64,000 nt of DNA from a virus (IMGVR_UViG_3300042291_000844:32001-96000), one strand, 5' to 3'. Positions 2,619 to 62,867 are shown, counted from the stretch's first letter. Notes: a model not told the origin generated them from the letters alone. Numbers and translations: made by a program.

Positions 2619-2623
2619 AATTC

Positions 2624-3010: not shown

Positions 3011-3339
3011 AGTATTTCAAAATCTCCCTTCATTACAATATTATCGTTTGTAGTAATATCATATGCGTTTACAAAATTAGCTTTTTTAAATTTAACTAAA
3101 ATATCTGCATTATACCCTTCCATCACATAATCTTTTTCGGATATGTATTGCCCGTTAATAAATATATCAAAACGTGCGTGTTCGCTTCGTAAAGGTCTAA
3201 GAAAGGATTCTAAATCTTTAAGTTTAGTATTTTTTGCACCCCATACCCAATATAGTGGGTGATTCATATCCATTGGTATCAATGAATACTCATTTTGGTC
3301 TTCAATTTGTTTTAATATTTTATTTAAATCATATATCAT
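3007..3339 (-). CDS. Hypothetical structural protein
   Basis: 110-aa ORF coupled by ATGA overlaps on both sides; FDIFINGQYI motif like its neighbours. Confidence 0.6.
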   Translation of the reverse strand: MIYDLNKILKQIEDQNEYSLIPMDMNHPLYWVWGAKNTKLKDLESFLRPLRSEHARFDIFINGQYISEKDYVMEGYNADILVKFKKANFVNAYDITTNDNIVMKGDFEIL

Positions 3340-4481: not shown

Positions 4482-5035
4482 TAGTATGTTCTCTCCTCAA
4501 TTTGAACTTGTGAACGTTTTACCATCATACCAGTAGCAACAAGTTGCATACTTGCATCTGAGAATGTGTTTGTAGATTGGTCATATATTTTTGATGAACC
4601 ACCTATTAACATAGTATCCATAACATTATTTATTTCATAATAAAATTCATCAAACAAAATAATATCTCCGATTTCAGGATATCCATATTGTGTATTTTGT
4701 ATTGCATCTGCAGGGATTTCGTTACCATTGATATCTCGTATCTTTGGTATCTCATGCGTTCTTAATCTTTCTTTATTAAAACGGAATTCTACATTTTGTT
4801 GTGTATCCGGTCCAAATTCATCATAATTTGAAGTAGTATTCTCTCTATCAACAATACACATCAAATTAGCGGGTGCATGGTATATTTTACCCAATGATTC
4901 ACCATATAAATTAGTTTTTGATTCGCCAACTGATATTTTGAATAGGGTAATAGTTGTTTCCACTACATAATCCACCACTTCTTCAGCGATAGTTTTTATG
5001 AACTCCAAATCTCTACTATGAAAAAACTTTGGCAT
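4481..5035 (-). CDS. Neck / head-closure protein (T4 gp14-like)
   Basis: NLYGE, DEFG, PEIGDII motifs; synteny gp13-gp14-gp15. Confidence 0.6.
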   Translation of the reverse strand: MPKFFHSRDLEFIKTIAEEVVDYVVETTITLFKISVGESKTNLYGESLGKIYHAPANLMCIVDRENTTSNYDEFGPDTQQNVEFRFNKERLRTHEIPKIRDINGNEIPADAIQNTQYGYPEIGDIILFDEFYYEINNVMDTMLIGGSSKIYDQSTNTFSDASMQLVATGMMVKRSQVQIEERTY

Positions 5036-5041
5036 ATGTTA

Positions 5042-6193
5042 TTATCCTATGTATATTGCTAATGGAACTGATTTAATTATTTTTTGTTGTTGTTCAACCA
5101 TATTGGATTCATTTTCCATTCTGGTCTTTTTACTAACCTCTTCTAAGTTTTCTCTCAATTGAGTTACTAATGATTCCTTTTCAGTTTGTGCTTCTGCCCT
5201 TAGTGCTGCACCATCCAATGAAACATCCGAACCAGGAATTGGTATAGTAGAATATTTTTCTCTAATTGCACCTAATAATTCTTTAGCAAGTGCAAGAGTA
5301 TATTTTCTAATCCATTGTTTACCAACATCATTGATTTTTGAATAATCTTGAAACTGATATCCAACATTTGAATAATCACTTACAACATTAGGGGTTATTA
5401 TAGTATTTCCTTCTCTAAAATCTTTCTTAACCATATACTCAAACCACAACCTTTCAGCTTTAGTTGGTATTGGGAATATTTGTATTTTATTATTTACAAT
5501 ATTGAATGTAAATGCAGATTTACGGAATTGGTCATTAAATTCAATTGCTTGAATTCTTAACATATCCTCATACATTGGCATTAGAATGAATTGTGCTGCG
5601 GGTGAGAACGAACCAAAGCCAAATTCATCAATTAAGTTCAAAGTACCTTGTCCACTTACTGAATACGGGTCAAAGAAACGTGATATTGCAGGTGTTGCTT
5701 CATGATATACTCTTGTTATATCAATTCGTTCACCACTTTCACTTACATCACCCCATAGTTCTTGTAAATCATAATTTTGATTACCAGCTTGAACTACGAT
5801 ATTTCCTTTTTTAATATCAATTCTACCACCAACATTTGCTTGAGTACCATAACTTTCTGCAATAGTAATTACATTGTTTAATTCGCTACCTAATACTGAT
5901 TTGTTAGTAAAATTTGAACTTGTGGGTTGACCTTCAAGGGCACCCATATTGTTTCGTATGTTAAATTGATTAACTTGTGCAGAATATTCACTCACCGCCT
6001 CTTCAAACACCGCAAAGAAACTACTTGATATCAATTCTACATCTACAATTGGATAACCTAACCTTTGTGCACACCACGATGCAACTTTAGGGGCATCTAA
6101 TTGAAAGTTTGAATCATTATCATATAATCCGAATGGGGTAGATGAACCAGTAACGAAAGTTGCCGTACCTGTCCATACTCTTGATTGCGACAT
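5042..6193 (-). CDS. Neck / head-tail adaptor protein (T4 gp13-like)
   Basis: LGYPIVDVEL N-terminal motif and WIRKYTLALAKELLG..R.KY..IP.PG..V.LDG C-terminal motif; start moved to ATG 6193, which has AAGGAG 7 nt upstream. Confidence 0.75.
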   Translation of the reverse strand: MSQSRVWTGTATFVTGSSTPFGLYDNDSNFQLDAPKVASWCAQRLGYPIVDVELISSSFFAVFEEAVSEYSAQVNQFNIRNNMGALEGQPTSSNFTNKSVLGSELNNVITIAESYGTQANVGGRIDIKKGNIVVQAGNQNYDLQELWGDVSESGERIDITRVYHEATPAISRFFDPYSVSGQGTLNLIDEFGFGSFSPAAQFILMPMYEDMLRIQAIEFNDQFRKSAFTFNIVNNKIQIFPIPTKAERLWFEYMVKKDFREGNTIITPNVVSDYSNVGYQFQDYSKINDVGKQWIRKYTLALAKELLGAIREKYSTIPIPGSDVSLDGAALRAEAQTEKESLVTQLRENLEEVSKKTRMENESNMVEQQQKIIKSVPLAIYIG

Positions 6194-6223
6194 ATTTATT
6201 CTCCTTAATACATTTATTCTTAT

Positions 6224-6231
6224 ATAAATAT
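6224..6231 (-). promoter_or_regulatory. Putative phage late promoter ATATTTAT
   Basis: Motif about 30 nt upstream of neck operon start; recurs in most intergenic gaps. Confidence 0.5.
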
Positions 6232-6239
6232 AAAATAAC

Positions 6240-6271
6240 AAAAAAGGGAGTGAATAAATCCACTCCCTTTC
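6240..6271 (-). terminator. Rho-independent terminator
   Basis: AAAAGGGAGTG-loop-CACTCCCTTTT hairpin followed by a T-run on the minus strand. Confidence 0.85.
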
Positions 6272-6292
6272 AAATCTTATGTTTTATATCTA

Positions 6293-6664
6293 TTATCCTA
6301 AGTTAATTAGTTTATATTTTGTTGAGTATAATAGTTTAGCAATATTATCTAATTCATTCTGAATCCAACTTACCTTTAATTTATCTTGTTGTCTTTCATT
6401 TTCTAAAAATTTAATCAGTTTATCGAAATAAGCAATTATGTTTTCTTTTGATGAATCGGTATCTATTCCGTTTACTTGTTTGTAAGTTATCAAACCATAT
6501 TTACCTTGATACGCCTCAATTAAACCATCTAATAGGGGTATAAGTTCCGTATAGTAAGTTTCTAATGCTAAATGTAATGCAAGAGAACCCGGTCCATTAA
6601 CTCCTGTGTGGAATTGATGTGTTTGTGTTCTACTATGAAAAAAAATCGAAGCTAATTGTTCCAT
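6293..6664 (-). CDS. Ferritin-like four-helix protein (DUF5856-like)
   Basis: HQFH...HLALETYY...D.LIE.YQG and NELDNI..L...T.YKL pattern. Confidence 0.55.
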   Translation of the reverse strand: MEQLASIFFHSRTQTHQFHTGVNGPGSLALHLALETYYTELIPLLDGLIEAYQGKYGLITYKQVNGIDTDSSKENIIAYFDKLIKFLENERQQDKLKVSWIQNELDNIAKLLYSTKYKLINLG

Positions 6665-6705
6665 CTAATATATCCCTTTGGTAATAAGTATATAAAAAGG
6701 TTAAT

Positions 6706-7470
6706 TTAAATAATTTTTGAATTTATTTTTTGTTTTGAAAACGGATAGTATGCACACAATTCTTGTGTATCTGGTAATTCGGATTCCCATATTTTTGCTA
6801 TACTTAGCATATTATCATCATAATATTCTGATAAATGTTCTTTTACAAAATTGTGATGACACATTATGGTAGGATGCCCATCTAATTCGTATGGAATTTT
6901 AGTATCTTTAAAACCATATGATTGTGGGTTAGTTTTTGAAGAATATGATTGTAAACTTTCATTAATGTAGACATCCTTTTTGTAATCATTAAGAAGTAAA
7001 TTTACATTATCATCAGTTTTTAATGTAATACCCATATCAGTTTGTAATAAATCAAATGCTTGAAGAATTTTATACTTACATCCAATCCCATCTAATAAGG
7101 CTTTAATAGTTTTAACCATAAACCAAGTGTTATATATTGAATGTTCATCACTCCACACTTCTCTTACAAATTTTTCCCCAAAAATATCTTCTGAGTTGTA
7201 AATATTTCCATTTAATATAAAAGCTTTATACTTTGGGTTATATATATCTAATCTATTAAAACTACTTAACATTATTAAAACCACATCGTTTTTAGTTATG
7301 TTTGCTTTTAAATGCATTTCGTATAATTTTTCAGCAGCATAATAATTACCTGCCCCTTGTTGTGCACAATTATAATGTTCTTTAAAATTTGTTGCTATTA
7401 TGTTAGCCCAGGTGGGCCACATATATTTTGTGTAACTACATCCAAATGTAAATAATCTATTTTTTGTCAT
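6706..7470 (-). CDS. SGNH-like hypothetical protein of phage glycan islands
   Basis: FTFGCSYT, NCAQQGAGN, DGHPT motifs; likely start ATG 7470. Confidence 0.5.
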   Translation of the reverse strand: MTKNRLFTFGCSYTKYMWPTWANIIATNFKEHYNCAQQGAGNYYAAEKLYEMHLKANITKNDVVLIMLSSFNRLDIYNPKYKAFILNGNIYNSEDIFGEKFVREVWSDEHSIYNTWFMVKTIKALLDGIGCKYKILQAFDLLQTDMGITLKTDDNVNLLLNDYKKDVYINESLQSYSSKTNPQSYGFKDTKIPYELDGHPTIMCHHNFVKEHLSEYYDDNMLSIAKIWESELPDTQELCAYYPFSKQKINSKII

Positions 7471-7489
7471 TATTATAAATATTATATAC

Positions 7490-7514
7490 AAAAAAAAGGG
7501 AGAATCCTCCCTTT
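7490..7514 (-). terminator. Rho-independent terminator
   Basis: AAAGGGAG-GATT-CTCCCTTT plus T-run, after the small-gene cassette. Confidence 0.85.
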
Positions 7515-7545
7515 AACAAATGAACAAACAAACAAAACTAATATC

Positions 7546-7812
7546 TTAATACTCAATCATTGAGACCGGTACGTTGTATGAAGCAAATCCACCTTTTACT
7601 CTCAAATTGGCTTTAGTTCGGTTGATTTTAACAACCTCTAACTCTCTACCCATTAATTTGGGGTGATTTACTTTAACCGTCATACCTACTTGCAATGACA
7701 ATTTCTTTTCTAACGATTCTATGGTACGTTTTTGCTTAATCAGTTCAATAACCATTTGGTTAACATTACGCAATTCTGCTACTGATAATTTTGATAATTC
7801 TGAATAATTCAT
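7546..7812 (-). CDS. Small hypothetical protein, helix plus SH3/KOW-like domain
   Basis: 88 aa; LQVGMTVKV..G..EVVKINRTKA pattern. Confidence 0.55.
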   Translation of the reverse strand: MNYSELSKLSVAELRNVNQMVIELIKQKRTIESLEKKLSLQVGMTVKVNHPKLMGRELEVVKINRTKANLRVKGGFASYNVPVSMIEY

Positions 7813-7835
7813 GTCTTTTATGTTTTAAATTTTAA

Positions 7836-8048
7836 TTAATCTATTTCGCCAAATACTCTAATCCATTCCTCATTGGTAATCCCCGTCATAAGGAACTCCC
7901 TTTCGTCCATTGTTAAGTTTGGAACGATGTTTTGTATCAATTCCGTTGAATTGCGACGATTCTCTATTCTTAATAACTCATCTTGAGTAACATTGATATT
8001 CAATGTATGTTCAATACCGGTTAAACTGCTGATTTTTGTAATATTCAT
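7836..8048 (-). CDS. Conserved small phage hypothetical protein
   Basis: 70 aa; LIQ..PNL..DEREFLMTGIT.EEW motif recognised from other phages. Confidence 0.6.
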   Translation of the reverse strand: MNITKISSLTGIEHTLNINVTQDELLRIENRRNSTELIQNIVPNLTMDEREFLMTGITNEEWIRVFGEID

Positions 8049-8066
8049 ATTTTTATATTTTAAGGG

Positions 8067-8309
8067 TTACCAACACAACATATCTCCTGCCTTATCCCAA
8101 CTTCTAGCACCACTTTCGGTTGCTTTGTGAAGTGTATTGTAATCCACATCTAAGTTGGAATTACCGAACTGGCGTTTAAGTTCTGATTTGAATTCCGTAA
8201 GGTTCTTAGCCCAAACATCGTTGAACCCACCACTTACCCAATTGAATTGGTATCGGTATTCACCTTTTGAATTCTTTAACAATCTTTCATACTTTGCTCT
8301 ATGTTTCAT
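8067..8309 (-). CDS. Small hypothetical protein
   Basis: 80-aa ORF with A-rich leader, directly downstream of the repeated promoter. Confidence 0.55.
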   Translation of the reverse strand: MKHRAKYERLLKNSKGEYRYQFNWVSGGFNDVWAKNLTEFKSELKRQFGNSNLDVDYNTLHKATESGARSWDKAGDMLCW

Positions 8310-8337
8310 AATTTTATATTTTATATTTTATAGTTTA

Positions 8338-8390
8338 TTATCTCTCAATCTTATAAAGCTAATCTACAACTTTTTTTCCACATTTCCTAA
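8338..8390 (-). promoter_or_regulatory. Early-type promoter/leader repeat, copy 1
   Basis: TTAG-N20-TAGATTAG resembles Bacteroidota -33/-7; 45/53 nt identical to 8980-9032. Confidence 0.6.
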
Positions 8391-8407
8391 TATTTTAGGA
8401 CTTATTT

Positions 8408-8716
8408 TTATAAATAAGTTGGGCCATAATGAGACCATTTAGCTGTCCCCTCAAATATGTTTCCTCTACTATGTTTAGCCGGGGCTCTCCAACTGGCAGG
8501 TTTCATTAAATCACCTTTCTTAACCGGAACTCCCATATGGTAACCATCAAACATTGAAACGAACGCCCATACGTGGTTACTATCCATAATTTTCATAAAC
8601 TTAGAACCCTTTTTAACCTTTAACGGGGTATAATCACTATAATACTCACCCGATTCGTGTCTTTTTTTACGGTCTGCATCAACCTTTGCTAACCAAATTT
8701 CAAATTGCGTTTTCAT
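8408..8716 (-). CDS. Conserved T4-like phage hypothetical protein
   Basis: 102 aa; KGDL.KPASW.APAK..RGNI motif typical of T4-like phage small genes. Confidence 0.6.
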   Translation of the reverse strand: MKTQFEIWLAKVDADRKKRHESGEYYSDYTPLKVKKGSKFMKIMDSNHVWAFVSMFDGYHMGVPVKKGDLMKPASWRAPAKHSRGNIFEGTAKWSHYGPTYL

Positions 8717-8728
8717 ATATCTTATATT

Positions 8729-8959
8729 TTATTTTAACCATAAATTGTAAACATAATCATACTTTACATTCAAAGTCTCTGCAAGTTTCTCAAACAATCT
8801 CTCTCTGATTACACTATCGGTAACACCAATGTATCGGTAAACATCCTCACCAACAATCAGTTTATTTAATAGACCGGGAAATGTGGGGGTTTCATTCAAT
8901 TCTAATCCCAAATCATCGGTTGGGAAGTTCTCTACATAATACTCTTTAATTGTGCTCAT
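8729..8959 (-). CDS. Small hypothetical protein
   Basis: 76 aa; D.Y..IGV.DS.IRERLF..LA..L...YDYVY.LWL; first gene after promoter copy 2. Confidence 0.6.
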   Translation of the reverse strand: MSTIKEYYVENFPTDDLGLELNETPTFPGLLNKLIVGEDVYRYIGVTDSVIRERLFEKLAETLNVKYDYVYNLWLK

Positions 8960-8979
8960 ATTTTTTATATTTTATTTGT

Positions 8980-9032
8980 TTATCTCCTAATCTTATAAAG
9001 CTAAACTACACATTATTTTCCACAATTCCAAA
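8980..9032 (-). promoter_or_regulatory. Early-type promoter/leader repeat, copy 2
   Basis: TTTG-N20-TAGTTTAG; near-identical to 8338-8390. Confidence 0.6.
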
Positions 9033-9070
9033 TTATTTCCCATTTATTTTCACTTTTTTTGTAAAATTTT

Positions 9071-9119
9071 TCATTGATTATCAATGAGTTATGGGAGGTT
9101 GACTATCAATGAGTTATGG
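9071..9119. repeat. Palindrome-containing 21-bp direct repeat pair
   Basis: TTGA(T/C)TATCAATGAGTTATGG at 9074-9094 and 9099-9119; TCATTGA-TTA-TCAATGA perfect inverted repeat at 9071-9087. Confidence 0.8.
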
Positions 9120-9123
9120 ACAT

Positions 9124-9154
9124 AAAAAAAGGGAGAATATTTCTATTCCCCCTT
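9124..9154 (-). terminator. Rho-independent terminator of the major capsid gene
   Basis: 11-bp stem with GAAA loop followed by T7 on the minus strand. Confidence 0.85.
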
Positions 9155-9207
9155 CTTTATTATCGAATCGTTAGTTTGATTCAGTTATCGATTGTTCTTT
9201 ATCTAAA

Positions 9208-10836
9208 TTAGATAGAAGCCAAATCTTTAACATAAATCTTACCATAGAATTCTGGACGGACCATCTTCTTAGCGTAACGAGTCATAACACCACGACGAGG
9301 CGTGAAGTTAGATGGGTCGTACACTAATGGAGTCATAATCAATGGTACATATGGAGCATAAACCGCACCAGTCTCAAGGAAGTTACTTCCTTTGAATCCT
9401 AATAAGATTTCGTTAGAAGTCATATAAGGGTTCTTGTAAACTGTGTAACGAGATGCCAAAGAACCTACTTGAGATACACCAGCTGCGAAAGATGTAGCAT
9501 CTTTATCAGCGTTAACTGTAAATCCAGGAATTGATTCTAAGATAGTACAAACATCTGGAGATGCAACGATGAAGTTAGCACCACCACGTAATGTTAATTG
9601 GTGAATCTTGTTAGAAACTTTGTTCAATTTAACACCTAATGTTTGGAACCATGTATTTTTTTGGTATGCCAATGAATTGTTACCTGCTGACCAAGTACCT
9701 GCTGCTGCATTGTACTCTTCACCGATTGAAGCAGACCAGTAATCAACTGTCAAAGCATTTGATTTTAACATATCTAAGATTTCTAAGTCAATCTCTAAAG
9801 AGATATATTCAGATAACATAGAAGTTAATTCAGCTTCAGCATCGATTGAGTGATATGCATTCAAATCTTGTGCCAATTCTGGAGTCCACACTGCTTTTAA
9901 CTTACGAGTCTTAGCAACGATTGCCTCAGAACGTAATTCTAAGTCAACTTCTGGAATACCTAAATCAGTTGCTGGTTCAGTTGGGTTACCATCTTCGAAA
10001 TCACCACGAGTGTTTGAAGTTGGAGCCTGTGCATATTTAACAGTGATTTGTGTGTGAGCACCAGCTGTGTATTTAGCATAGAATACGATATTATCACCAT
10101 CAACTTTAGTAAATTGAGGATAGAACGCATCAGCAGCAGAGAATGCTGAAGATGAGAAGTAGAATGAACGTACACCATCTAAATCTGGTCTTGATAATTC
10201 TGATTTAGGGAATACAACTTTTCTTAATCCGCCTGTTGCAGTACCTAAAGCTACTGATGCAGATAAAGATGAATCGAATCCAACTTCTGCCCATGTTGCA
10301 GAACCAGTACTGATTACATCAGCAGATGCTACTAATGAACTAGATTCGTTAACTGTATAACCATAACGACCTTCACCATAAAGACCGTTTACTGCAGATT
10401 TAGTTCTACCGAAATCACCATCAAATGTTGAAGTACCTGCACCACCGAATAAAGATTTTCCAGAAAATGCTGGATTACCTGGAACTGCAGTACCATATTT
10501 GAAGTCTAGATAGAATATAAGACCTGAAGGTAAGTTCATTGGTTGAACTGAAACGAATTCTTTCGCTGCAATTTCACCAAAGATTCTTCTTACTAATGGT
10601 AAAGCGACGCCAGACCATTCTTCAGAACCTGCTGAAGTACCAGTTGCGGTAGCTTCATCCAATAATTGTTTCGCTTGGTTCTCTAATAGAACTGCGATTT
10701 GAGATTGCTCTCTTTCTTTTAAACCTTCTAAAAGACCAGTTGCTTCCCATTTGCTTTTCAATTGACGTGTTTCAGCCAACATTACCGCTTGTGGGTTCTT
10801 GCCTTCCATAAGTTTAGATAAATTAAAATTTGCCAT
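9208..10836 (-). CDS. gp23: Major capsid protein (T4 gp23 family)
   Basis: VSVQPMNLPSGLIFYL, KTRKLKA.WT.ELAQDL.A.H.IDAEAEL..MLS..I..EID.EI, Y.PYVPL, TRY motifs; AAGGAG SD. Confidence 0.97.
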   Translation of the reverse strand: MANFNLSKLMEGKNPQAVMLAETRQLKSKWEATGLLEGLKEREQSQIAVLLENQAKQLLDEATATGTSAGSEEWSGVALPLVRRIFGEIAAKEFVSVQPMNLPSGLIFYLDFKYGTAVPGNPAFSGKSLFGGAGTSTFDGDFGRTKSAVNGLYGEGRYGYTVNESSSLVASADVISTGSATWAEVGFDSSLSASVALGTATGGLRKVVFPKSELSRPDLDGVRSFYFSSSAFSAADAFYPQFTKVDGDNIVFYAKYTAGAHTQITVKYAQAPTSNTRGDFEDGNPTEPATDLGIPEVDLELRSEAIVAKTRKLKAVWTPELAQDLNAYHSIDAEAELTSMLSEYISLEIDLEILDMLKSNALTVDYWSASIGEEYNAAAGTWSAGNNSLAYQKNTWFQTLGVKLNKVSNKIHQLTLRGGANFIVASPDVCTILESIPGFTVNADKDATSFAAGVSQVGSLASRYTVYKNPYMTSNEILLGFKGSNFLETGAVYAPYVPLIMTPLVYDPSNFTPRRGVMTRYAKKMVRPEFYGKIYVKDLASI

Positions 10837-10871
10837 TTTATTTTTTCTCCTTTGGGGTTGTTTTTTTTTGT

Positions 10872-11987
10872 TTATTTAATATTTGCTAATTTCTTGAAAC
10901 GTTCTGCCATAGAATTGCTTTCTGCTATAATTGTTTTTGGAGCAGTTGAAGCAACTTTTTTCGATGCGAATGATTCATTCATTTTAGTTTGTTGTTTTAC
11001 CTTCTTAGCAGTTCCACCAATTTTCATTGATTCAGCTAATGTAGAGAAAACTAATTTTACTTCTCTAACGTTTTGAGTTCTATCTAAAGTTTCAACAACT
11101 TTATGTTTTTGCTCATTAGTTAAATCGTAAGAACGGAATAATTTGTTAGTATACAATAATTTTGCATTTAACAAGTTTACTTCGTTGATTGTAGATTTCA
11201 AAGATTTGATAACTTTGTATGCTTCTTCTAAATCAGCTTGTAATTCAGCTTTTTCTTCATCAGCACCTTCTTTCATTTCCTCTTCTTCACCTTCCATTTT
11301 TTCGTCATCACCATAACCCATTTCACGTAAGATTTCGTCTAAGTCGATTTCTTCGTCTTCTTCGGATACTGGTTCTGCTTTTTCGTCACCTTCTGCAAAA
11401 GCTTCTGGTTTTTCTTCCTCTTCAACATACTCAGGTTTTTCAGTTTCGAATTTTACTTCGCCTTTTTCATCACCTTCTTCTGTCATTGGGTCGTTTTTAC
11501 CATCTAACTCTTGTTCTAGTTCTCTGATAATTTCTTCTAAATCGAAATCATCTTCATCCATAGGTTCAGGTTTTTCTTCTTCAGAAATTGCTCCAGTTGG
11601 GTCGTCGTTAACACCATCACCATTTTCATCTTCATCAGATTCTGCGATTGTGTTGTTTTCGTCTTCTTTACCTGGTGTTGCTGTTTCTTTGTCAGTATCA
11701 CCTAATTCTGTGTGTGCATCAGTTGAGATACCCTGTGGGTCTTTGTTCTCAACATCGCCAAATTTTGTGCTGTCTGCATCCGATGTGTCATCTGCACCAT
11801 ACTCTTCAGTTACATCTGCTGTCTCATCTTCTTCACCTTCCATTTCGGCTGTGATTTTCTTAGATAAGATAGATTGTAAACGTGGAGTAAAAGCTTCCTC
11901 TAATGCGATTTTAGCATTAGCGATTGCAGTTTCACGTACGGCTTTAGCATCAGCAATTGCATCTTTCAACAATTTTGAATTTGCCAT
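10872..11987 (-). CDS. Prohead core scaffolding protein (gp22-like)
   Basis: Highly acidic middle, EVNLLNAKLLY.NKLF C-terminal coil; immediately upstream of the capsid gene. Confidence 0.8.
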   Translation of the reverse strand: MANSKLLKDAIADAKAVRETAIANAKIALEEAFTPRLQSILSKKITAEMEGEEDETADVTEEYGADDTSDADSTKFGDVENKDPQGISTDAHTELGDTDKETATPGKEDENNTIAESDEDENGDGVNDDPTGAISEEEKPEPMDEDDFDLEEIIRELEQELDGKNDPMTEEGDEKGEVKFETEKPEYVEEEEKPEAFAEGDEKAEPVSEEDEEIDLDEILREMGYGDDEKMEGEEEEMKEGADEEKAELQADLEEAYKVIKSLKSTINEVNLLNAKLLYTNKLFRSYDLTNEQKHKVVETLDRTQNVREVKLVFSTLAESMKIGGTAKKVKQQTKMNESFASKKVASTAPKTIIAESNSMAERFKKLANIK

Positions 11988-12137
11988 TTGTTTTCTTCCT
12001 TTACTTTTTTTTCTGAAAATATTGAGTGATTTTCAATCGAATTGATTAAGTTAGTTGTTCGGTGACCTCACATAAGGGTGGGTATTCATTAACCAACGGG
12101 ATAAAATTAAACCTACATTAAGTAGGTTATTATAGAA

Positions 12138-12145
12138 ATAAATAT
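12138..12145 (-). promoter_or_regulatory. Putative late promoter ATATTTAT of the scaffold-capsid operon
   Basis: Motif 150 nt upstream of scaffold ATG, followed by a hairpin-rich leader. Confidence 0.5.
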
Positions 12146-12185
12146 ATAAATGTTTACGAAACCGCAAAATTTATGTAAAATATTT

Positions 12186-12488
12186 TTAATCTCTTGAGGT
12201 GTCTTTATCTGATTGAGGTGTTTTTTTACTAACTTTCTTTTTCTTTTTAGTAAAAAACCTAATCGTTCTATCACCATCTGCAATCTTACCGAGAGCAACT
12301 CTTTTTTGCTCTTCTCTGATTGCCTTTTGTTTTTGTAATCGTCTTTTTGTAGTAGGTTTAACGTATTCCTTTCTTTCTCTTAGTTCTAAGAGGTGTCCAG
12401 ATTCCATAACCTTTTTTTTGAATTTCTTTAAAGCCTTTGCAATGTCTCCATTACGAACTTCGACTGTAACTCTTGATAATCCGCTCAT
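12186..12488 (-). CDS. rpsU: Phage-encoded ribosomal protein bS21 with Lys-rich C-terminal extension
   Basis: V.VRNGDI.KALKKFKKKV..SG.L.ELRER..Y.KPTTKRR..K.KAI aligns with the bS21 family. Confidence 0.92.
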   Translation of the reverse strand: MSGLSRVTVEVRNGDIAKALKKFKKKVMESGHLLELRERKEYVKPTTKRRLQKQKAIREEQKRVALGKIADGDRTIRFFTKKKKKVSKKTPQSDKDTSRD

Positions 12489-12525
12489 TAATTGTATTTA
12501 AATTGTGTTTGTAACTTATTTGGTA

Positions 12526-12533
12526 ATAAATAT
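12526..12533 (-). promoter_or_regulatory. Putative late promoter ATATTTAT upstream of bS21
   Basis: Motif about 38 nt upstream of bS21 ATG in a short intergenic gap. Confidence 0.5.
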
Positions 12534-12545
12534 GTCTTTTATAGA

Positions 12546-13619
12546 TTATTTGCTTAAAAGGAACAATGCTTCTTCAGCTTCTTGTTGATTTTTAATCTTT
12601 GGGTCTTTATACATATCTACTTTATATCCTCTTAACGCATTTGATAAGAATATCATATACTTAGGATGTCCTAATTTTTCTTCTAACGTAGAAAGTGAAT
12701 CATAGAACGATTGCTCGTTTCCTTTATTCATTTTTTCTGCTGCTTTGAATTCTTCTTTATGTTTATCAATATATGATGCAGTTGAATCTTTATATCCGTA
12801 TTGTGCTTCGTTTACTTTACCACAATCAACACAATTAGTTTTAGATTCTTCTAATGGCCATTGTTTCAACCACTTTAACCACTCTTTAGTATTCCAATCG
12901 TTTCTTTGTCTTGCATCTACTTTATAGTATTTTGCAAATACATCTTTTAATTCTGATTTGTAATTAGCAAAACCGGGTATTTTAGATGTAACGTTTACAA
13001 ATTCATTTGCACTAGCGTAATGTTCCATTGAGTTAGATAACATATCTACTAATGCTAACATTGCTTTATCATTACCTAACGCTTCGTTTACTGATTCATT
13101 CTTTGGAACACAATTAGGAACTTGAGCACCACCTTTACCTGGTTTCATTCCTATCATCTCATATCCTTTCCAACATGGGTCTTTCTCCCCACCTTGTAAT
13201 TTACCATCTTCTCTCAATCCCAAACGTTCTCTCATTTGTTCTTCAGAAATTTCACCAATTTTATAGTAACGAGATAGGATATGTCCCATATCTTCGTATA
13301 ATCCATGTAATCTTTGGTCTAAGTTCTTTGCTTCTATTGCAACTTGGTCGAATGATTTACCTAATTTAGTTAATTCATTCATATTACGTTTAACAGTATG
13401 TGCATCAAACCAATCATCTGCTTCGTTTACCGCCAATTCTCTAGCTGCATCGGTAATACCACCTAAAGTTTCTGCAACTTCAGTAATATCTGATTTTCTA
13501 TCCATCATTTCTTGATACTTGTTGTATGTAGAAACGATTTCTAAGAAATGTTTTTTTACTTCGTTAGAAAATCTTTTTGGTTCTTCACCTTCTTTAACTA
13601 TCTTTGATAAACGTATCAT
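12546..13619 (-). CDS. Modular prohead core / internal head protein
   Basis: Helical N-terminal domain, PCWKGY...VPNCVP motif, NE/ESVNE-delimited modules; AGGAG SD. Confidence 0.6.
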   Translation of the reverse strand: MIRLSKIVKEGEEPKRFSNEVKKHFLEIVSTYNKYQEMMDRKSDITEVAETLGGITDAARELAVNEADDWFDAHTVKRNMNELTKLGKSFDQVAIEAKNLDQRLHGLYEDMGHILSRYYKIGEISEEQMRERLGLREDGKLQGGEKDPCWKGYEMIGMKPGKGGAQVPNCVPKNESVNEALGNDKAMLALVDMLSNSMEHYASANEFVNVTSKIPGFANYKSELKDVFAKYYKVDARQRNDWNTKEWLKWLKQWPLEESKTNCVDCGKVNEAQYGYKDSTASYIDKHKEEFKAAEKMNKGNEQSFYDSLSTLEEKLGHPKYMIFLSNALRGYKVDMYKDPKIKNQQEAEEALFLLSK

Positions 13620-13629
13620 TTATTATCTC

Positions 13630-14988
13630 CTATTTTACTAATTTTGCTAATTTTATTGATTCTGATTTAAATGGATTAAATAATCCTCTATTATTTACTT
13701 CCTTTTCAGTAGATGGTGCAACTTTTGCATTTTGTTGGTGTTTGTTCTTTATTGGATTATATTTTTCCAATTCATCAACATTAACATTACCATCTGCATC
13801 GGTTTTAACCTCGCCCGATTTATCATCACCCATTCTTACAATACCAACTGTCTTTGTTCTTGTATTATATACTAAATCATCTTTTTTGAATTTACCTTCA
13901 TTTGTAGTATCTTTTGTTTTAAGTACGTCTGCAAATGTATTTTCAATTTCATCCATCATATTGAATTCATTTAATTCATCCCAATCAAATGATGTTTTTA
14001 ATTTAGTCCAATTTATTTTTTCGTTTTTAGGTGCACCCGATACAATTGTCCAAATCAAGTCATTACATACTTTTATTTTAGCATCTTTATCTTGTGAATA
14101 TTTAGGATTATCTAATGCTTTTATAGTAGTATCATATACTGCTTTAACATTGTTGTATGCTAACTCTTTTCTAGTATAATGTATATCAGCTAATTTTTTA
14201 GCTGCAGCTTCTCTTTTTTTCTTAAAGTATGGAATTATATCTAATATGTCTTCATTTACCATTTTTGATAACGAAAGTCTACCTTCATTCTTCATATATG
14301 GTTTATTATCAAATACTGATTGAATTAAATCCGCTTCTTTATGAAATCCATTCATCCTTAATGTAAATGCTATACCATCTGCTGCATCAACTCCATCCCA
14401 TCCTGATGCTTGTGATACATCCGTACCATAATCATCAATCTCACCAGTTCCGTTCATATAAACCGAACCATCTGCCGAATTCTTACGAATATCAGCCATT
14501 TTCTCTTTATACTTAGGGTCTTTGATTGACGGATATTCAGGTTTCTTTGCAAATTCAGGTTTTCCCTCAATCGCTGCTACTAATTCTCTTGCCTCACTAT
14601 GGAAGTTTGAATCAGTTAGTGCAGAAACTGCTGCTTGAAACATTGCTTCTTTATATTTTTCATTACCCAACTTTTGTGGAGTAATTCCTGATTTCTCAGC
14701 TAATTTCTTAGCATCTTTATTTACCGATGGATTACCTGGTCTTTTCTTTTTAGGTTCTGATGTTGGTTCATCCTTCTTAGGTTCTGCTGCAGGAGTATTA
14801 AATATATTTGCGGTTGGTGTAGATGCCTTTTTAGAAACATCGCCCCCTTTACCATCTGCTTTTGAGTGAGTTCCTGCTTTGATTGCAGAATCTCTACTAT
14901 CCTTTGATTTGAACACCGATGTTTTACCGGTCTTCTTATTAGTAGCAGTAAACGTTTCTTCGTTAAGTAAATTATTTAATTTAATCAT
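13630..14988 (-). CDS. Modular Lys/Glu-rich internal head protein
   Basis: 452 aa; repeated (L/V/K/T)NE linkers; lies between protease and scaffold genes. Confidence 0.55.
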   Translation of the reverse strand: MIKLNNLLNEETFTATNKKTGKTSVFKSKDSRDSAIKAGTHSKADGKGGDVSKKASTPTANIFNTPAAEPKKDEPTSEPKKKRPGNPSVNKDAKKLAEKSGITPQKLGNEKYKEAMFQAAVSALTDSNFHSEARELVAAIEGKPEFAKKPEYPSIKDPKYKEKMADIRKNSADGSVYMNGTGEIDDYGTDVSQASGWDGVDAADGIAFTLRMNGFHKEADLIQSVFDNKPYMKNEGRLSLSKMVNEDILDIIPYFKKKREAAAKKLADIHYTRKELAYNNVKAVYDTTIKALDNPKYSQDKDAKIKVCNDLIWTIVSGAPKNEKINWTKLKTSFDWDELNEFNMMDEIENTFADVLKTKDTTNEGKFKKDDLVYNTRTKTVGIVRMGDDKSGEVKTDADGNVNVDELEKYNPIKNKHQQNAKVAPSTEKEVNNRGLFNPFKSESIKLAKLVK

Positions 14989-15007
14989 TAGTTGATGTTC
15001 CTATATT

Positions 15008-15448
15008 TTAAAATCCTATTGAGACCGTTTTATTATCAAATTCTATCCAACGTATTTTTAATGCAATTAAATCTTTTAAATCTGATGGGTCTAATCTCCA
15101 ATTTTTTTCTGCCATTTCAATATCAGCGATATTACCATGAATACCATCCCAAATTGTAATAACTTTACCATTAAAGAATTTTAAGAATTGTTGTACTTGT
15201 TTTTGTTTGTTAGAATCTAATTCTTTTAATTCAATTTCTGATGCCTCTTTAATTACCCTTTTAGTTTCAGTTAATACAGTTTTATGTGTATAAAGGTCTA
15301 ACTTACCATCGGCTTTAATCTTAACCTCATAGTTAGTCTTACGAATATCGTTATGACCACCCTTAAAAGGTGTATCACCAACTTCTTTCTTAATACTACC
15401 CATTTCTATTTTGTTATCTCTTAGATAATCTTGTATTGAAAATGCCAT
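15008..15448 (-). CDS. Hypothetical head-module protein
   Basis: 146 aa; LTE/IKE linker; AAGGA SD. Confidence 0.55.
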   Translation of the reverse strand: MAFSIQDYLRDNKIEMGSIKKEVGDTPFKGGHNDIRKTNYEVKIKADGKLDLYTHKTVLTETKRVIKEASEIELKELDSNKQKQVQQFLKFFNGKVITIWDGIHGNIADIEMAEKNWRLDPSDLKDLIALKIRWIEFDNKTVSIGF

Positions 15449-15458
15449 ATTGTATCCT

Positions 15459-16058
15459 TTATGCTAATTCAGTAATGATTTCTCTCATAAGGTCTTGTGC
15501 CTTACAATACTCACCACAAACTATAGCTTGTTCTTTTAATTGTCTATTTACTGATTCATTCATCGTAACCGGTGTCATAAATGCACCATGTGTAGATGGG
15601 TTAGAAACAAAATCCCAACCAATCAGTTCAAAATCATCACCCACTTTTACTTTACCTTCGCCAATGTTAACTACCGAACCCATACCACGAGAGGAAATAC
15701 CCAAAAGGATACCTGCTCTTAATAATTCTTTTAAGATGTTACCTGATGGGGTTGGTAGAATTTCTACTGTGCCACAAAGGTCATCACCTTCCCAATGAAT
15801 TTCTTTTACGTTATGTGAAACATTCTTTAAGTTGATAATACCAGAATCTGGATGGTCTAACTCTCCTAATGCACGTCTTTCTTTAATAAGAACTTCGTAT
15901 TTCTTTGCTTCACGCATTAAGATTTCTTTAGGGTATATACGACCATTTTGGTTTTCTGCAACCGCTCTTTGAAGAATACCTTTAACTAAGGTTCTACCAT
16001 TTGAATCTTCATTCAATTTTCCTTCAAATAATGTTGTTTCTATTAATAAATTTTTCAT
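15459..16058 (-). CDS. gp21: Prohead core protease (T4 gp21 family)
   Basis: NQNGR.YP, GELDHP, GISSRG.GS, WD.VSNPST motifs; ATG 16058 coupled by TAATG to the upstream ORF. Confidence 0.95.
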   Translation of the reverse strand: MKNLLIETTLFEGKLNEDSNGRTLVKGILQRAVAENQNGRIYPKEILMREAKKYEVLIKERRALGELDHPDSGIINLKNVSHNVKEIHWEGDDLCGTVEILPTPSGNILKELLRAGILLGISSRGMGSVVNIGEGKVKVGDDFELIGWDFVSNPSTHGAFMTPVTMNESVNRQLKEQAIVCGEYCKAQDLMREIITELA

Positions 16059-16234
16059 TATGCTCCCCACGTTTTTCTCTTTTTAAAGAGGTCAAAAAAT
16101 ATTGCAGATACTTCTCTACGAATAATATCACGAATAAGTTTTTCATCCTCAGTTGTGATTTCTTCTTTGACGATACCCCATTTTACTTTGGTTATCTCTT
16201 CGTTAATAATATCTAACAATCTTTTTCGTGTCAT
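16058..16234 (-). CDS. 58-aa hypothetical protein missing from the ORF track
   Basis: MTRKRLLDIINEEI...IRDIIRREVSAIFFDLFKKRKTWGA*; fills the gap exactly and its stop overlaps the gp21 start. Confidence 0.75.
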   Translation of the reverse strand: MTRKRLLDIINEEITKVKWGIVKEEITTEDEKLIRDIIRREVSAIFFDLFKKRKTWGA

Positions 16235-16236
16235 TG

Positions 16237-16719
16237 TTATTTTTTCTTTACTAATTCGTTTACACCTTCTACTAAATGTAGAACAAAATCACCATTACCA
16301 TTTGATTTTACTACTTTATATTCTTTTTTCTTACCACCGGAATTGATAGTTATTTTTTCACCAACTTTAAATGCGTTTTTATCACCAGTTTTTAATACAG
16401 CAGGTCCATCGTAATCTTCGTTTACTGATTCGTTTGCTTTTTTACCAGCTCTTAAATCTGCTAAATCATCACTACCGATATCACCATCTTTATCAACATC
16501 TAATTTCTTTTGGCCACCAACTAATTCTTCATTCTTCTCGCCCTTACCATTCCATGCTGCATCAATTTTATCAAAGAATGCTTTCTTTTCTTCATCTGAC
16601 ATAGATGGAATTGATTTTCCAGCTTTATCTAATGCTTTTTGAAAGAATGCCTGATATTCATTTTCTTCAGTCATTACTCCTTTGATGATTTCTTTTAATC
16701 GTGTACGTGATATTTTCAT
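16237..16719 (-). CDS. Modular hypothetical head protein
   Basis: YQAFFQKAL.K.GK....MS.EEKK.FF..ID..W domain, LDVDKDGDIGSDDL EF-hand-like segment, ESVNE linker. Confidence 0.6.
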   Translation of the reverse strand: MKISRTRLKEIIKGVMTEENEYQAFFQKALDKAGKSIPSMSDEEKKAFFDKIDAAWNGKGEKNEELVGGQKKLDVDKDGDIGSDDLADLRAGKKANESVNEDYDGPAVLKTGDKNAFKVGEKITINSGGKKKEYKVVKSNGNGDFVLHLVEGVNELVKKK

Positions 16720-18095
16720 TATTTTTCTATCTCCTGTATTGTTTTCGCTATGTTGATTAATCGTTCCTTTATCTTATAAATATGTCCATGCGTTCTTTTC
16801 CAAAATGTATCGGAACTCAATTCATTCATAGTCTTAATTTGATTATACCAACGGAAAAAAGTTTCAACTTCTTTTAATTGATATTTTAATTCTCTCAAAC
16901 CAGTTGCTAACTTCTTATTAGCATGCATTGATTCATCGTTTTTTAATTCTAACCAACGATTTACCGGTCTTTGAATTTTCTTTCCCTCTGATAAACTCTC
17001 ATCCATATGTTCTAAACCATATTTCATAATAGTTTTATCATCTAACATCTTACCATTAAGAGTAAACATACGTTTACCTTTATAATAAACTGACCAATTA
17101 CCTTGTGGGGTTGCATCGACAGTAATATTTTTTAAATCCTTTATACTTCTATCATTAACTTGAATAGCATCTAAGAATTTTTCTGCTTTAGGGTCTAATG
17201 CTTCGTTTACCGATTCATTTGTTGATACAAATAATCTTACTGAAAGAATTACATCTTTATCTATATTTAAACTTCTTACTTTATTTTTTTCTAAATCGTA
17301 AGCCGGATTGATTGTATTTGCTTTTGCAATTACACCATCTTTAACAAAGTGTGGTTGTAATCCAGAATAGTTATCATCTCTAAACATAAAAACATCTTTA
17401 GGAGAATCCTTAGATATTTTAATTATTTTCTTTAAACCTTCCTTACCGATAAAACATCCACCTTCACATTTACTTCCACCATAAGTTTTACCTTTTTGTA
17501 ATGATGCTTCGTTTACCGATTCACCTAATCTATCAAGCATTCCACTTACAACTTTATTAGTTATTTTATGGTTATTATCATTAAAAGCTTTTAAAATTGC
17601 GTGATATACATTTGTACCACCTTTAACATTTTTTTTCTCTATTTTTAGTTTTTTACCATTTTTTAATGTTACTAAAATATAGTGTGGGTTTACAAATTCA
17701 TCCCAATCTTTGTAGATGGGTGCATCTTCGTTTACTGATTCGTATTTAATCATATCGGGGTCAAACTTGTCAAAATTCTTCTTTGCCCATTTAACGGCAT
17801 CTTCATAAGAATTAAATTTAATCCTATCTTGTTTGAATCCCTTTTTCTTATTTAGAAAATCAATATAAACTTTGTCTTCATTTATGGATTCATCAATATT
17901 ATTAATATCATTATTTACTAATGTATAACCGAATTGTGTTGCAGTTTTTTTTCTTTTTTTATCAGAATTTTTACCAGAAAAGGCATGAGGAGTATCGTAA
18001 CCATCAACATTACCTGTCACATTGGCTTCATCTAATTCATCTTCGACTTCCTTAATAAGTTCGTCTATAAAAGATTTAATATTTTTTTCTGACAT
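16719..18095 (-). CDS. Modular head protein with four ESxNE-delimited inserts
   Basis: GYDTPHAF N-terminal motif, FWKRT C-terminal domain, ESINE/ESVNE x4 plus ESLSE. Confidence 0.65.
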   Translation of the reverse strand: MSEKNIKSFIDELIKEVEDELDEANVTGNVDGYDTPHAFSGKNSDKKRKKTATQFGYTLVNNDINNIDESINEDKVYIDFLNKKKGFKQDRIKFNSYEDAVKWAKKNFDKFDPDMIKYESVNEDAPIYKDWDEFVNPHYILVTLKNGKKLKIEKKNVKGGTNVYHAILKAFNDNNHKITNKVVSGMLDRLGESVNEASLQKGKTYGGSKCEGGCFIGKEGLKKIIKISKDSPKDVFMFRDDNYSGLQPHFVKDGVIAKANTINPAYDLEKNKVRSLNIDKDVILSVRLFVSTNESVNEALDPKAEKFLDAIQVNDRSIKDLKNITVDATPQGNWSVYYKGKRMFTLNGKMLDDKTIMKYGLEHMDESLSEGKKIQRPVNRWLELKNDESMHANKKLATGLRELKYQLKEVETFFRWYNQIKTMNELSSDTFWKRTHGHIYKIKERLINIAKTIQEIEK

Positions 18096-18945
18096 TGGTT
18101 ATTTCCTTTATTAATTCGTATGATATCATCAACGCTGAAACCTGTTCATCCGTAATTTTCTTTCCTATCTTTTGTGTTTTCAAAACATTGATAGTTTCTT
18201 TTAATTTAATTTTTGTGATTTTATCATTAACTTCGGAATGTAATTTGTGAAGTTCAGTTACTACTTTCTTTAATTGTGAATCGTAGTATTCACCGAATTT
18301 AGATGTATTATTAACATTATTAATAAATTCTCTTAAAAGACCTTTTTGGTCGTCGTTTAAGTTAGTGTATTTGGTATTAAATGTTTCAACTAGTATTTTA
18401 TATGTCAACAATCTCAAATCTTTTTCTTGATTCTTATATGTTTCCATTAATTTATCTTCAATCTTCTTAATAGATACTGTGGTTGTAGATACGTGTTCTA
18501 CTAATGTAATCTTAGCATCAAATACATCCTTAACATTAGTTACATCTTGTATCTTTGCTTCAAAAATCTTATGAACCGATGCTAATACTCTATAATTAGA
18601 AACAGGAGAAGCAACAAATTCTTCAATATCGAAATTTTCTTTAATAGCTTTTACTAAGTTATACTTTTCTCTTAATAATTTAGTTTCATCTAATTTAGTA
18701 CGAGTTTCGATAATAGCATCAATAAATTTTTCTGCTTTACTTTCTGAATTATATTTTTCAGTTGTAAGTAAATTGAATAAACGCAATTCCTTTGCTAATT
18801 CGGTTTTACCACCAAAAAATTCTTGTACTATTTTTTTAGCCTTCTCAACTGGAGCATTATTTAAAATCTCCAATGTGATTTGACGAGTTAAGAGTTCAAA
18901 TAAAAACCCTGTATTTTTAAATTTCGAATGTTTAATTTTTTTCAT
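18076..18945 (-). CDS. Conserved head-module helical protein
   Basis: KIKHSKFKNTGFLFELL.RQIT N-terminus; immediately downstream of portal. Confidence 0.6.
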   Translation of the reverse strand: MKKIKHSKFKNTGFLFELLTRQITLEILNNAPVEKAKKIVQEFFGGKTELAKELRLFNLLTTEKYNSESKAEKFIDAIIETRTKLDETKLLREKYNLVKAIKENFDIEEFVASPVSNYRVLASVHKIFEAKIQDVTNVKDVFDAKITLVEHVSTTTVSIKKIEDKLMETYKNQEKDLRLLTYKILVETFNTKYTNLNDDQKGLLREFINNVNNTSKFGEYYDSQLKKVVTELHKLHSEVNDKITKIKLKETINVLKTQKIGKKITDEQVSALMISYELIKEITNVRKKY

Positions 18946-19013
18946 TGTATTTTAAATCCTTATTTTGATAGACTCAAATTTCTATATATAAATATAAAAA
19001 ATTCTAAGTTAGA

Positions 19014-62835: not shown

Positions 62836-62867
62836 TAAAGATACGAAATAAATCTGATATTTCCAAA
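62836..62867 (-). promoter_or_regulatory. Bacteroidota sigma-A-type promoter (proximal)
   Basis: TTTG-N20-TATCTTTA, 23 nt upstream of the primase ATG. Confidence 0.7.

Follow-up and report, generated by a model that had tools for sequence, protein, structure and literature searches.

Phage-encoded bS21 is the commonest viral ribosomal protein. To our knowledge, nobody knows how it helps the phage. The question takes a definite form in a T4-like jumbo phage from lake water in which a bS21 ORF sits in the head module: does such a protein alter the choice of messages by the ribosomes of the host? The window examined here, i.e., the whole stretch of viral DNA that was analysed, is 64,000 nucleotides long (IMGVR_UViG_3300042291_000844:32001-96000). 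It has a GC content of 30.8% and all of its genes are phage genes. Phage bS21 and its substitution into ribosomes are already known as ideas, and the bS21-dependent masking of the anti-Shine-Dalgarno (anti-SD) sequence is established. The signature residue of anti-SD-sequestering bS21 is Tyr54, which stacks on A1534 of the 16S rRNA, and the C-terminus of Bacteroidetes bS21 is less basic than in other phyla (Jha et al., 2021; PMC7797042).

The bS21 gene and its own signals

The gene is located on the minus strand at 12186..12488, starts with the first ATG past an in-frame TAA and codes for 100 aa, a SGHLLELRERK...KAIR core followed by a long basic tail. We assign the protein to class R, one of the kinds of phage bS21 distinguished below. 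It scores 55.9 bits against Pfam Ribosomal_S21 (PF01165; cut-off 27) and 48.1 bits against TIGR00030 (cut-off 28.95). Thus the bS21 call of a first-pass annotation, made from the sequence alone, holds, and the peptide KPTTKRRLQKQKAIREE which it quoted is found in the protein. Phage bS21 of classes R and Y shares the invariant columns A19, K24, R39, K44, P45, R50, and A56 with the Bacteroidia and Ignavibacteria types; judged by the alignment, the core that binds the 30S platform appears retained. Compared with host-type bS21 the N-terminus has a net gain of four residues (the N-terminal loop is one residue shorter, and five are added ahead of the first strand). The AF2 model (mean pLDDT 84) has helices at 16-30, 32-38 and 45-71, the last preceded by K44-P45, and this predicted pattern is that of the bS21 architecture with its KP hinge before the C-terminal helix. 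The best matches in a structure search are bS21 chains, at Z scores of 4-4.5 only, as expected because bS21 is an extended helical protein; these scores are of no use at residue level.

The neighbours are head genes, all on the minus strand. The bS21 gene lies between the S77 prohead protease (15459-16070) and the genes of an acidic scaffold-like protein (10872-11987) and of a gp23-type major capsid protein (MCP; 9208-10836). Portal and terminase follow further along in the window, placed by synteny with relatives. Every gene from 9 to 16058 is on the minus strand; of the 54 further ORFs called in the window, 52 share this orientation. The nearest counterparts of the MCP in isolated phages are those of Flavobacterium phage immuto and of Microcystis phage Mel-JY01 (~52% each). 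Phage-encoded bS18 or bS6 was searched for and not found.

The gene carries signals of its own. About 37-45 nt before the ATG, at 12525..12533 (minus), is a late-type promoter motif, ATATTTATT, followed by GTTACA; its ATATTTAT part occupies 12526-12533, 38-45 nt ahead of the ATG. The motif upstream of bS21 is kept in 7 of 8 class-R sequences aligned; in most of the class-R lineages compared, as in the window, ATATTTAT(T/A) together with GTTACA precedes the bS21 start by 25-45 nt. If the coding strand is considered, the window has 24 copies of TATTTAT[AT], and 13 of them fall within the intergenic 5% of its sequence. In G003, a complete 287-kb relative collinear with the window (76-85% nucleotide identity), 38 of 72 copies of the late-type motif are intergenic. 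In the window as in G003 the intergenic copies gather ahead of other late genes, and the same motif precedes the head genes of immuto. The timing implied by the word 'late' is taken solely from promoter motif and gene position. The leader proper, AAACACAATTTAAATACAATTA (12489..12510, minus), is A/T-rich and without SD: the best pairing of positions -22..-4 with the anti-SD has +2.3 kcal/mol. Further, none of the bS21 leaders of the relatives has an SD at canonical spacing. Both signals had been described in the first-pass annotation, which spoke of an own motif and of a missing SD at bS21, and both descriptions are correct. A terminator-like hairpin, AACCTACTTAATGTAGGTT, with a T-rich run is situated 58 nt past the bS21 stop (12110..12128, minus); two such sites are present in the region versus 0.2 expected from shuffles. 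Contigs from four lake metatranscriptome studies cover bS21, and one of them also spans the whole scaffold gene at 99.5% identity; such contigs attest presence in RNA libraries, with DNA carry-over possible, and give no gene ranking, 5' ends or timing.

Arginine in the Tyr54 column and a basic tail

When the protein is aligned with cellular bS21 the signature Tyr54 of the Bacteroidia-type, anti-SD-sequestering proteins is replaced by Arg58 (codon AGA, 12315..12317, minus). A phmmer search of PDB chains aligned residues 8-65 with the 63-aa bS21 9i5v_9, a chain listed without its organism; a single gap occurs close to the N-terminus, and QKAIR58 is over QKAIY54. In a MAFFT alignment, A2, the stretch from K44-P45 through A56 is ungapped and contains three invariant columns; the residue in question is Arg in 20 of 20 class-R proteins and Tyr in five Bacteroidia-type and in class-Y phage bS21 (Phe in one phage group). 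The bS21 of Flavobacterium johnsoniae, 7JIL chain z, reads IQKAAY54IQ and aligns without gaps over 1-58 with one of the five Bacteroidia-type proteins in A2, hence its Tyr54 belongs in the Arg58 column. The first-pass annotation had given KAAY for Flavobacterium, had put Arg at the Tyr position by aligning from KP and had suggested a comparison with bS21 of the host clade; the chain, the two alignments and the comparison with Bacteroidia-type proteins agree with it on each count. The residue is positioned in the middle of the predicted helix 45-71, in a segment modelled with a pLDDT of 97 (residues 51-60).

A word-indexed homolog search gave 143 clusters at E <= 0.001, and the 120 of them that were listed were aligned with the query. 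Arg is found in this column in 120 of these 121 sequences, therefore Arg58 is no chance feature. Among the clusters listed, 62 belong to a long-tail group of RF[FY]TKKKK type, 35 to an 82-aa group ending in GKKHKK and 20 to a 71-72-aa group ending in NRY.

Past Arg58 there are 42 residues with a net charge of +7 and a run of KKKKK; host-type proteins of 63-64 aa have 10 residues past Tyr54. The 'about 35' extra residues with KKKKK counted earlier thus resolve into ~32 at the C-terminus and the net four at the N-terminus. Residues 72-100 (DGDRTIRFFTKKKKKVSKKTPQSDKDTSRD; 12189..12275, minus) are predicted to be unstructured by AF2. In the tails of long-tailed relatives the motif RF[FY]TKKKK is kept. 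A short C-terminal part, by which Bacteroidia-type bS21 is recognised, is absent from the window protein. By alignment, then, it departs twice from the host type of Jha et al., at Tyr54 and at the C-terminus.

At 61 loci in IMG/VR three kinds of phage bS21 are encountered. Class-Y proteins have 61-64 aa with KAIY54, plus one 88-aa ORF call (~63 aa from the aligned start) with Phe54. If a class-Y locus includes head genes (L057-L064, L069-L071), the bS21 gene runs antisense to them; in L065-L068 it is co-directional with its neighbours. The third type, in SD-rich loci, is probably from phages of other hosts. Class-R contigs extend up to 288-289 kb; the gene order on them is always TerL, portal, protease, bS21, scaffold, capsid, on a single strand.

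How do these classes relate to the bS21-encoding freshwater Bacteroidetes myoviruses of Chen et al. (2022), from which 61 bS21 proteins were reported (PMC9723584)? In common are large size (about 290-330 kb), low GC content, lake origin and predicted Bacteroidota hosts, a bS21 gene only a few genes away from those for TerL, portal, prohead protease and capsid, and a proposed substitution into host ribosomes late in infection (PMC9723584). There are differences, too. The published proteins have Tyr, His or Phe at position 54 in 61 of 61 cases, the window protein has Arg; the published genes are antisense to the head genes and have a convergent partner gene, class-R genes are on the same strand (PMC9723584). 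Chen-type proteins recovered here come from loci without SDs, whereas class R combines a long basic tail with SD-led head genes; SD usage was not examined by Chen et al. (PMC9723584). It is class Y, with an aromatic residue at 54 and the reverse strand, that fits the published description, hence class R is not the published class, a separation which is drawn from the text of Chen et al. and from the Tyr54-type loci recovered here. As far as the sequences go, the published rule by which Bacteroidetes-phage bS21 retains the aromatic residue without exception does not extend to class R.

A gene in the head module between internal-head-type genes and a product with a lysine-rich tail may bring to mind a role in the virion or outside the ribosome: bS21 could be packaged as a DNA-binding internal protein or be injected at the onset of infection, and packaging was raised as a possibility by Chen et al. 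(PMC9723584). Yet the bS21 core is strongly conserved, including the cellular invariants, which is unexpected for a mere basic filler, and in G003 the early genes are SD-poor, so an injected SD-enabling factor would be of no help to them. We consider a virion role decidedly unlikely.

Shine-Dalgarno leaders of the head genes

Every gene start was scored by pairing positions -22 to -4 with the anti-SD, and a value at or below -4.5 kcal/mol was taken as SD. In the head/neck module (3010..18966, minus; bS21 and a five-gene cassette not counted) 12 of 16 genes are SD-led, with starts at 3010, 4481, 6193, 6664, 10836, 11987, 13619, 15448, 16058, 16719, 18095, and 18945. Elsewhere in the window this applies to 1 of 31 genes, a tail fibre (Fisher p = 4e-7). 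The cores are AAGGAG, TAAGGAG, GAGGAG, TAGGAG, and GGGGAG, spaced 4-13 nt from the ATG. The MCP has AAGGAG at 10847..10852 (minus), 10 nt before its ATG, with -8.9 kcal/mol. By the measure used here the SDs of the window phage are moderate, about -6 to -9 kcal/mol. No SD is present in the window at bS21, portal, terminase and the nested cassette of five ORFs. These five small SD-less ORFs (7546..8959, minus) are nested in the late region, carry duplicated host-type promoter-like elements (TTG-N19-TAGCTTTA), and at 8067-8340 the window has 87% nucleotide identity to part of the early region of G003.

Genome-wide tests were carried out on G003 and not on the window phage itself. The SD-led genes of G003 cluster in the head, tail and baseplate regions. 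Between 100 and 190 kb the SD frequency is 6.7%, below the background of 18.6% at random positions. The late-type motif TATTTATA accompanies 16 of 71 SD-led genes versus 18 of 302 others (p = 8e-5); the host-type promoter accompanies 0 of 71 versus 18 of 302. Beyond the head module strongly SD-led genes are those for tail tube, baseplate wedge and endolysin. A DnaB-like helicase is also strongly SD-led and is not a late gene. The rule in G003, then, is one of mostly late and abundant genes and is not absolute.

A comparison of orthologs extends this picture to other phages. Of six long-tailed class-R lineages, most or all have retained the SDs at MCP, scaffold, g357, g160, g458, gp13, and protease, and these SDs are conserved gene by gene while the flanking bases diverge. 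The scaffold SD is weaker or missing in L036 and L037, and some other genes behave likewise in some lineages. The MCP SD is present in the six class-R lineages (as a weaker AAGGA in L037) and is weak in the short-tailed L043. At the same genes SDs are absent, and the leaders A-rich, in the class-Y loci L062 and L071 (Tyr54/Phe54) and in immuto, which has no bS21. With one locus per lineage the pooled SD frequency is 68/130 in long-tailed class R versus 3/58 in class Y (p = 4e-11). The short-tailed class-R phages (70-72 aa; L040, L041, L043) have kept Arg58, and with 12/72 their SD frequency equals background. In an MCP tree the short-tailed L043 is placed in a basal polytomy, and the long immuto branch is misplaced. 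Since the SD-rich lineages may be a single clade, the SD contrast may rest on one or two evolutionary events.

These distributions bear on what exactly in the protein might matter. A version in which Arg alone is responsible is weakened by the lack of SD enrichment in short-tailed Arg-type relatives, by an aromatic residue conserved later in the tail, and by a pocket whose bS18/bS6 side is left as it was. The same short-tailed relatives suggest that the basic tail may matter, too; going by this comparison of sequences, it may be as relevant to SD usage as the arginine.

The conserved aromatic residue deserves a separate consideration. Every class-R tail keeps one 17-21 positions past Arg58 (RF[FY]TKK, GEY, NRY), and for every phage bS21 of Chen et al. 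an aromatic residue 'near the C-terminus' is reported (PMC9723584). Conceivably the tail aromatic of class R might take over the stacking role, i.e., Phe78/Phe79 (Tyr in relatives) would fold back and stack on A1534, the anti-SD would stay sequestered as with the host protein and the purine-rich leaders of the head genes would not be functional SDs. This conflicts with true SD cores (GGAG, AGGAG, AAGGAG) at 4-13 nt spacing which are conserved while their flanks diverge. Further, the Chen-type proteins recovered here are short, have their Tyr precisely at 54 and form another class, and the AF2 tail is unstructured past the helix that ends at residue 71. We regard continued sequestration as highly improbable.

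Another possibility, in line with the model of Mizuno (2019) and Chen (2022), is that phage bS21 biases ribosomes to phage messages otherwise than by release of the anti-SD. The N-terminal helix or the tail would recognise another feature of phage mRNAs, and the late SDs would be read by ribosomes lacking bS21 or after removal of the host bS21. The N-terminal region does differ from host-type bS21 by its net four-residue extension, in F. johnsoniae some ribosomes naturally lack bS21 and do read SDs (PMC9976891), and Arg-type short-tailed phages without SD enrichment would be accommodated. Left unexplained is that SD-led head genes are confined to phages with an Arg-type, basic-tailed bS21 and are missing from all Tyr-type and bS21-less relatives; moreover, the mutation Y54A alone suffices to raise SD-led translation (PMC9976891). 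A bias of this other kind we find rather unlikely.

Host and proposed re-tuning of its ribosomes

The first-pass annotation had presupposed a Bacteroidota host, and this is what emerges. The host is very probably of the class Bacteroidia because of promoters with an exact 20-nt spacer and of a SusC-type receptor in a sister phage. In G003 there are 18 intergenic promoters of the form TTGG(A/T)A...TTTCGTAT(A/C)TTTG whose spacer measures exactly 20 nt, most of them 14-50 nt before start codons. For no other spacer length are there more than three intergenic copies, and either element seldom occurs in variant form. Two copies of this G003 element, a Bacteroidota-type early promoter, are TTGGAAAT..N20..TATCTTTG at 62903-62933 and TTGGAAATATCAGATTTATTTCGTATCTTTA at 62836-62866, both on the minus strand. 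TTG plus TAnnTTTG is the established sigma-A consensus of Bacteroidetes/Flavobacterium, reportedly going back to Bayley et al. in 2000 and Chen et al. in 2007. The class-R phage G004 codes for a 902-aa SusC-type TonB receptor (CarboxypepD_reg, Plug, barrel) with up to 73% identity in the best aligned segment, the match being to the whole protein, to Polaribacter, Robiginitalea, Flavobacteriaceae, and Cryomorphaceae. Its 80 best matches are nearly all labelled Bacteroidia, two Balneola-type MAG labels apart. A search for the SusD family in five relatives returned nothing, and matches to the T9SS C-terminal domain were all below cut-off; the host assignment makes use of neither. Receptor and promoters point to Flavobacteriales-like hosts whose own bS21 would have Tyr54.

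Might the phage protein simply mirror its host? A host which uses SDs or possesses an Arg54 bS21 of its own, as in Ignavibacteria or Chlorobia, would make everything described above quite ordinary. Indeed, at the 30 best-scoring bS21 loci in 151 GTDB Bacteroidota genomes KAIRR is found in 24 of 31 sequences examined. The nearest relatives of this KAIRR type are in MAGs mostly labelled Ignavibacteria or Chlorobi. The window protein is equidistant, with 35.3 bits versus Ignavibacteria-type and 34.2 bits versus Bacteroidia-type bS21, and if only the head module is considered, SDs are about as frequent as in phages whose hosts use SDs. However, the G004 receptor with its up to 73% identity leads to Flavobacteriales, and among its 80 best matches none is from Ignavibacteria or Chlorobi; the promoters are of the Flavobacterium TTG/TAnnTTTG form. 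Outside the late modules the SD frequency of G003 is, at 6.7%, below background, which is not the pattern of an SD-using host, and the phage is found in lake-water metatranscriptomes, a family member in a Tara dataset. We deem a mirrored host protein very unlikely.

What we propose instead is that phage bS21 enters Flavobacteria-type ribosomes, loosens the anti-SD and thereby favours SD-led late messages. A swap into host ribosomes with a late release of the anti-SD had been put forward in the first-pass annotation, and the present data support it in part. Based on the comparisons above we grant this an even chance of being right. In its wider form the proposal reads that the virus turns SD-blind Bacteroidia ribosomes into SD-reading ones, the SD being a private late signal and SD-less messages being partly shut off, to which we assign a slightly less than even chance. 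The sequence of events might be as follows. The bS21 gene would be transcribed from the phage's own late-type promoter, and because of its SD-less leader the message would be translated by ordinary SD-blind host ribosomes. The product would replace or pre-empt host bS21 on Flavobacteria-type 30S subunits. There, Arg would take the place of the Bacteroidia-specific Tyr54, which steers the anti-SD tail into the bS21/bS18/bS6 pocket, the anti-SD would be less well sequestered, and the lysine-rich tail may stabilise the SD-anti-SD helix. The ribosomes altered in this way would favour the SD-led capsid, scaffold, head, neck, tail tube, baseplate, and endolysin messages and would be somewhat worse on SD-less host and early messages. 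Such a phage circuit would run the logic of host rpsU autoregulation in reverse.

Ribosomes with phage bS21 should read SDs because the protein is predicted to bind like bS21 with Arg at the critical position and because loss of Tyr54 raises SD-led translation. The re-tuning is well motivated, since in F. johnsoniae Y54A by itself has this effect. The mutant bS21(Y54A) is viable and grows normally; in vivo rpsU'-gfp is up 3-fold and a tuf reporter with a strong SD is up by 70%, in vitro 3-fold more protein is made from an SD-led template, and SD-less reporters are unchanged (PMC9976891). In addition, 30S subunits without bS21 release the anti-SD (PMC13000457). Indirect support comes from the concentration and conservation of SDs on head/neck genes, to which the first-pass annotation did not refer, and from Tyr54-type or bS21-less relatives which lack those SDs.

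Some observations made on the cellular system also count against a re-tuning. Most of the contacts in the pocket are supplied by bS18 and bS6, which are not phage-encoded; the effects of Y54A are only 1.7-3-fold; and wild-type F. johnsoniae ribosomes respond only to very strong SDs, below -13 kcal/mol, a strength which the moderate SDs of the phage do not reach.

In the literature searched we found no paper linking a Tyr54-less phage bS21 to SD-led late genes. Close counterparts are the F. johnsoniae mutants Y54A and deltaC, in which Tyr54 or the C-terminal helix is lost, the anti-SD is free and translation shifts to SD-led messages (McNutt et al., 2023; PMC9976891; PMC13000457). For Arg58 the same consequence is predicted, in a natural viral variant as opposed to laboratory mutants. 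The sub-population of F. johnsoniae ribosomes lacking bS21 serves one gene, rpsU, whereas the phage variant would serve a set of late genes. A concrete mechanism which can be tested is suggested by the sequences, and F. johnsoniae offers genetics and structures. If true, this would be the first virus that changes the rule of mRNA selection of a ribosome by swapping one ribosomal protein, a natural, virus-driven switch to a 'specialized ribosome'. It would explain why an intact anti-SD is retained in Bacteroidia, would correct the generalisation that all Bacteroidota-phage bS21 keep an aromatic residue at 54, and would provide a natural tool to turn on SD recognition in Bacteroidota.

Outside of Bacteroidota two systems are related in part. 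The Pelagibacter phage HTVC008M is a T4-like myovirus with a bS21 for which, according to the citing paper, entry into the ribosomes of E. coli was demonstrated (Mizuno et al., 2019, cited in PMC9976891). So far as this account goes it supports the idea of viral bS21 incorporation, since a phage protein does enter ribosomes, in another host phylum where sequestration of the anti-SD is not at issue. A close sequence relation to HTVC008M bS21 was not found when the window protein was searched by tblastn against 50,697 phage records; nothing was returned at E <= 1e-3, an outcome which is uninformative for a short basic query. In Francisella tularensis bS21 paralogs exist, and an alternative bS21 in one pool of ribosomes alters the mRNAs translated; these paralogs are cellular and not viral, and the abstracts state no link to anti-SD unmasking (PMC9578407, PMC12262407).

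The host gene itself stands in an inverse relation to that of the phage: rpsU is SD-led, the phage bS21 gene is SD-less. McNutt et al. speculated that the SD-led rpsU of the host would then respond as a counter-measure (PMC9976891).

Arginine at the Tyr54 position and the class-R tail

Within GTDB Bacteroidota, MAGs that carry the label Ignavibacteria or Chlorobi have a bS21 with the motif KAIRR (L093-L122, L123-L202), whose Arg falls at the position of Tyr54 in Flavobacterium johnsoniae. This makes Tyr54-based anti-SD sequestration a trait of the class Bacteroidia rather than of the phylum.

In class-R phages, i.e., those whose bS21 has Arg58 in the Tyr54 column, the tail of the protein retains an aromatic residue 17-21 residues past Arg58, without exception in the window (tail at 12189-12275, minus strand) and its relatives. 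The contexts are RFFTKK, RFYTKK, GEY and NRY. In long tails the aromatic is followed by four or five lysines, a run which recalls the C-terminus of Bacteroidia bS22 with its four lysines (PMC13000457). Mimicry of the bS22 lysines by the long class-R tails is possible.

Shine-Dalgarno signals at bS21 genes of relatives

The class-Y phage locus L068 encodes a 64-aa bS21 with KAIY54 (9998-10192), preceded by a strong SD, TAGGAGAT (-7.3 kcal/mol). Among the genes of this locus only bS21 has a strong SD, which copies the design of host rpsU. The arrangement in class-R phages is the opposite. In a class-R subclade with a bS21 of 102-110 aa (L035-L038), GGAG is located 1-2 nt before the annotated bS21 ATG as part of AAAGGAGA or TTAGGAGA (alignment A1); this spacing is too short for a canonical SD.

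Promoters, nested small ORFs and metatranscriptome matches

In G003, the complete 287-kb relative, TTGG(A/T)AAT...TTTCGTAT(A/C)TTTG is present in 18 intergenic copies (L075-L089; e.g., at 17746, 24595, 27336, 38175 and 57388) with a spacer of exactly 20 nt. This early promoter is unusually uniform. Because its conservation is far above the minimal requirement of a sigma-A site, it suggests an added phage-specific recognition element.

Nested within the late head region of the window are five small, SD-less ORFs (7546-8959, minus strand). These ORFs are preceded by two copies of a promoter-like element (near 8996-9025 and about 8345-8400), each of about 45 nt and carrying a host-type promoter-like TTG-N19-TAGCTTTA. 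Positions 8067-8340 are 87% identical to 14590-14864 in the early region of G003.

For the head region (9000-16100), 26-50% of sampled words were present in 17 lake-water metatranscriptome runs, and metatranscriptome contigs of 99.5% identity span from the scaffold gene to bS21.

A receptor gene in a second class-R phage

Phage G004 (275,970 bp) carries a full-length SusC-type TonB-dependent receptor with CarboxypepD_reg, Plug and barrel domains (L204:1052-3757). Its identity to Flavobacteriales proteins reaches 73% in the best aligned segment. As an auxiliary gene of recent host origin, it encodes an outer-membrane importer.
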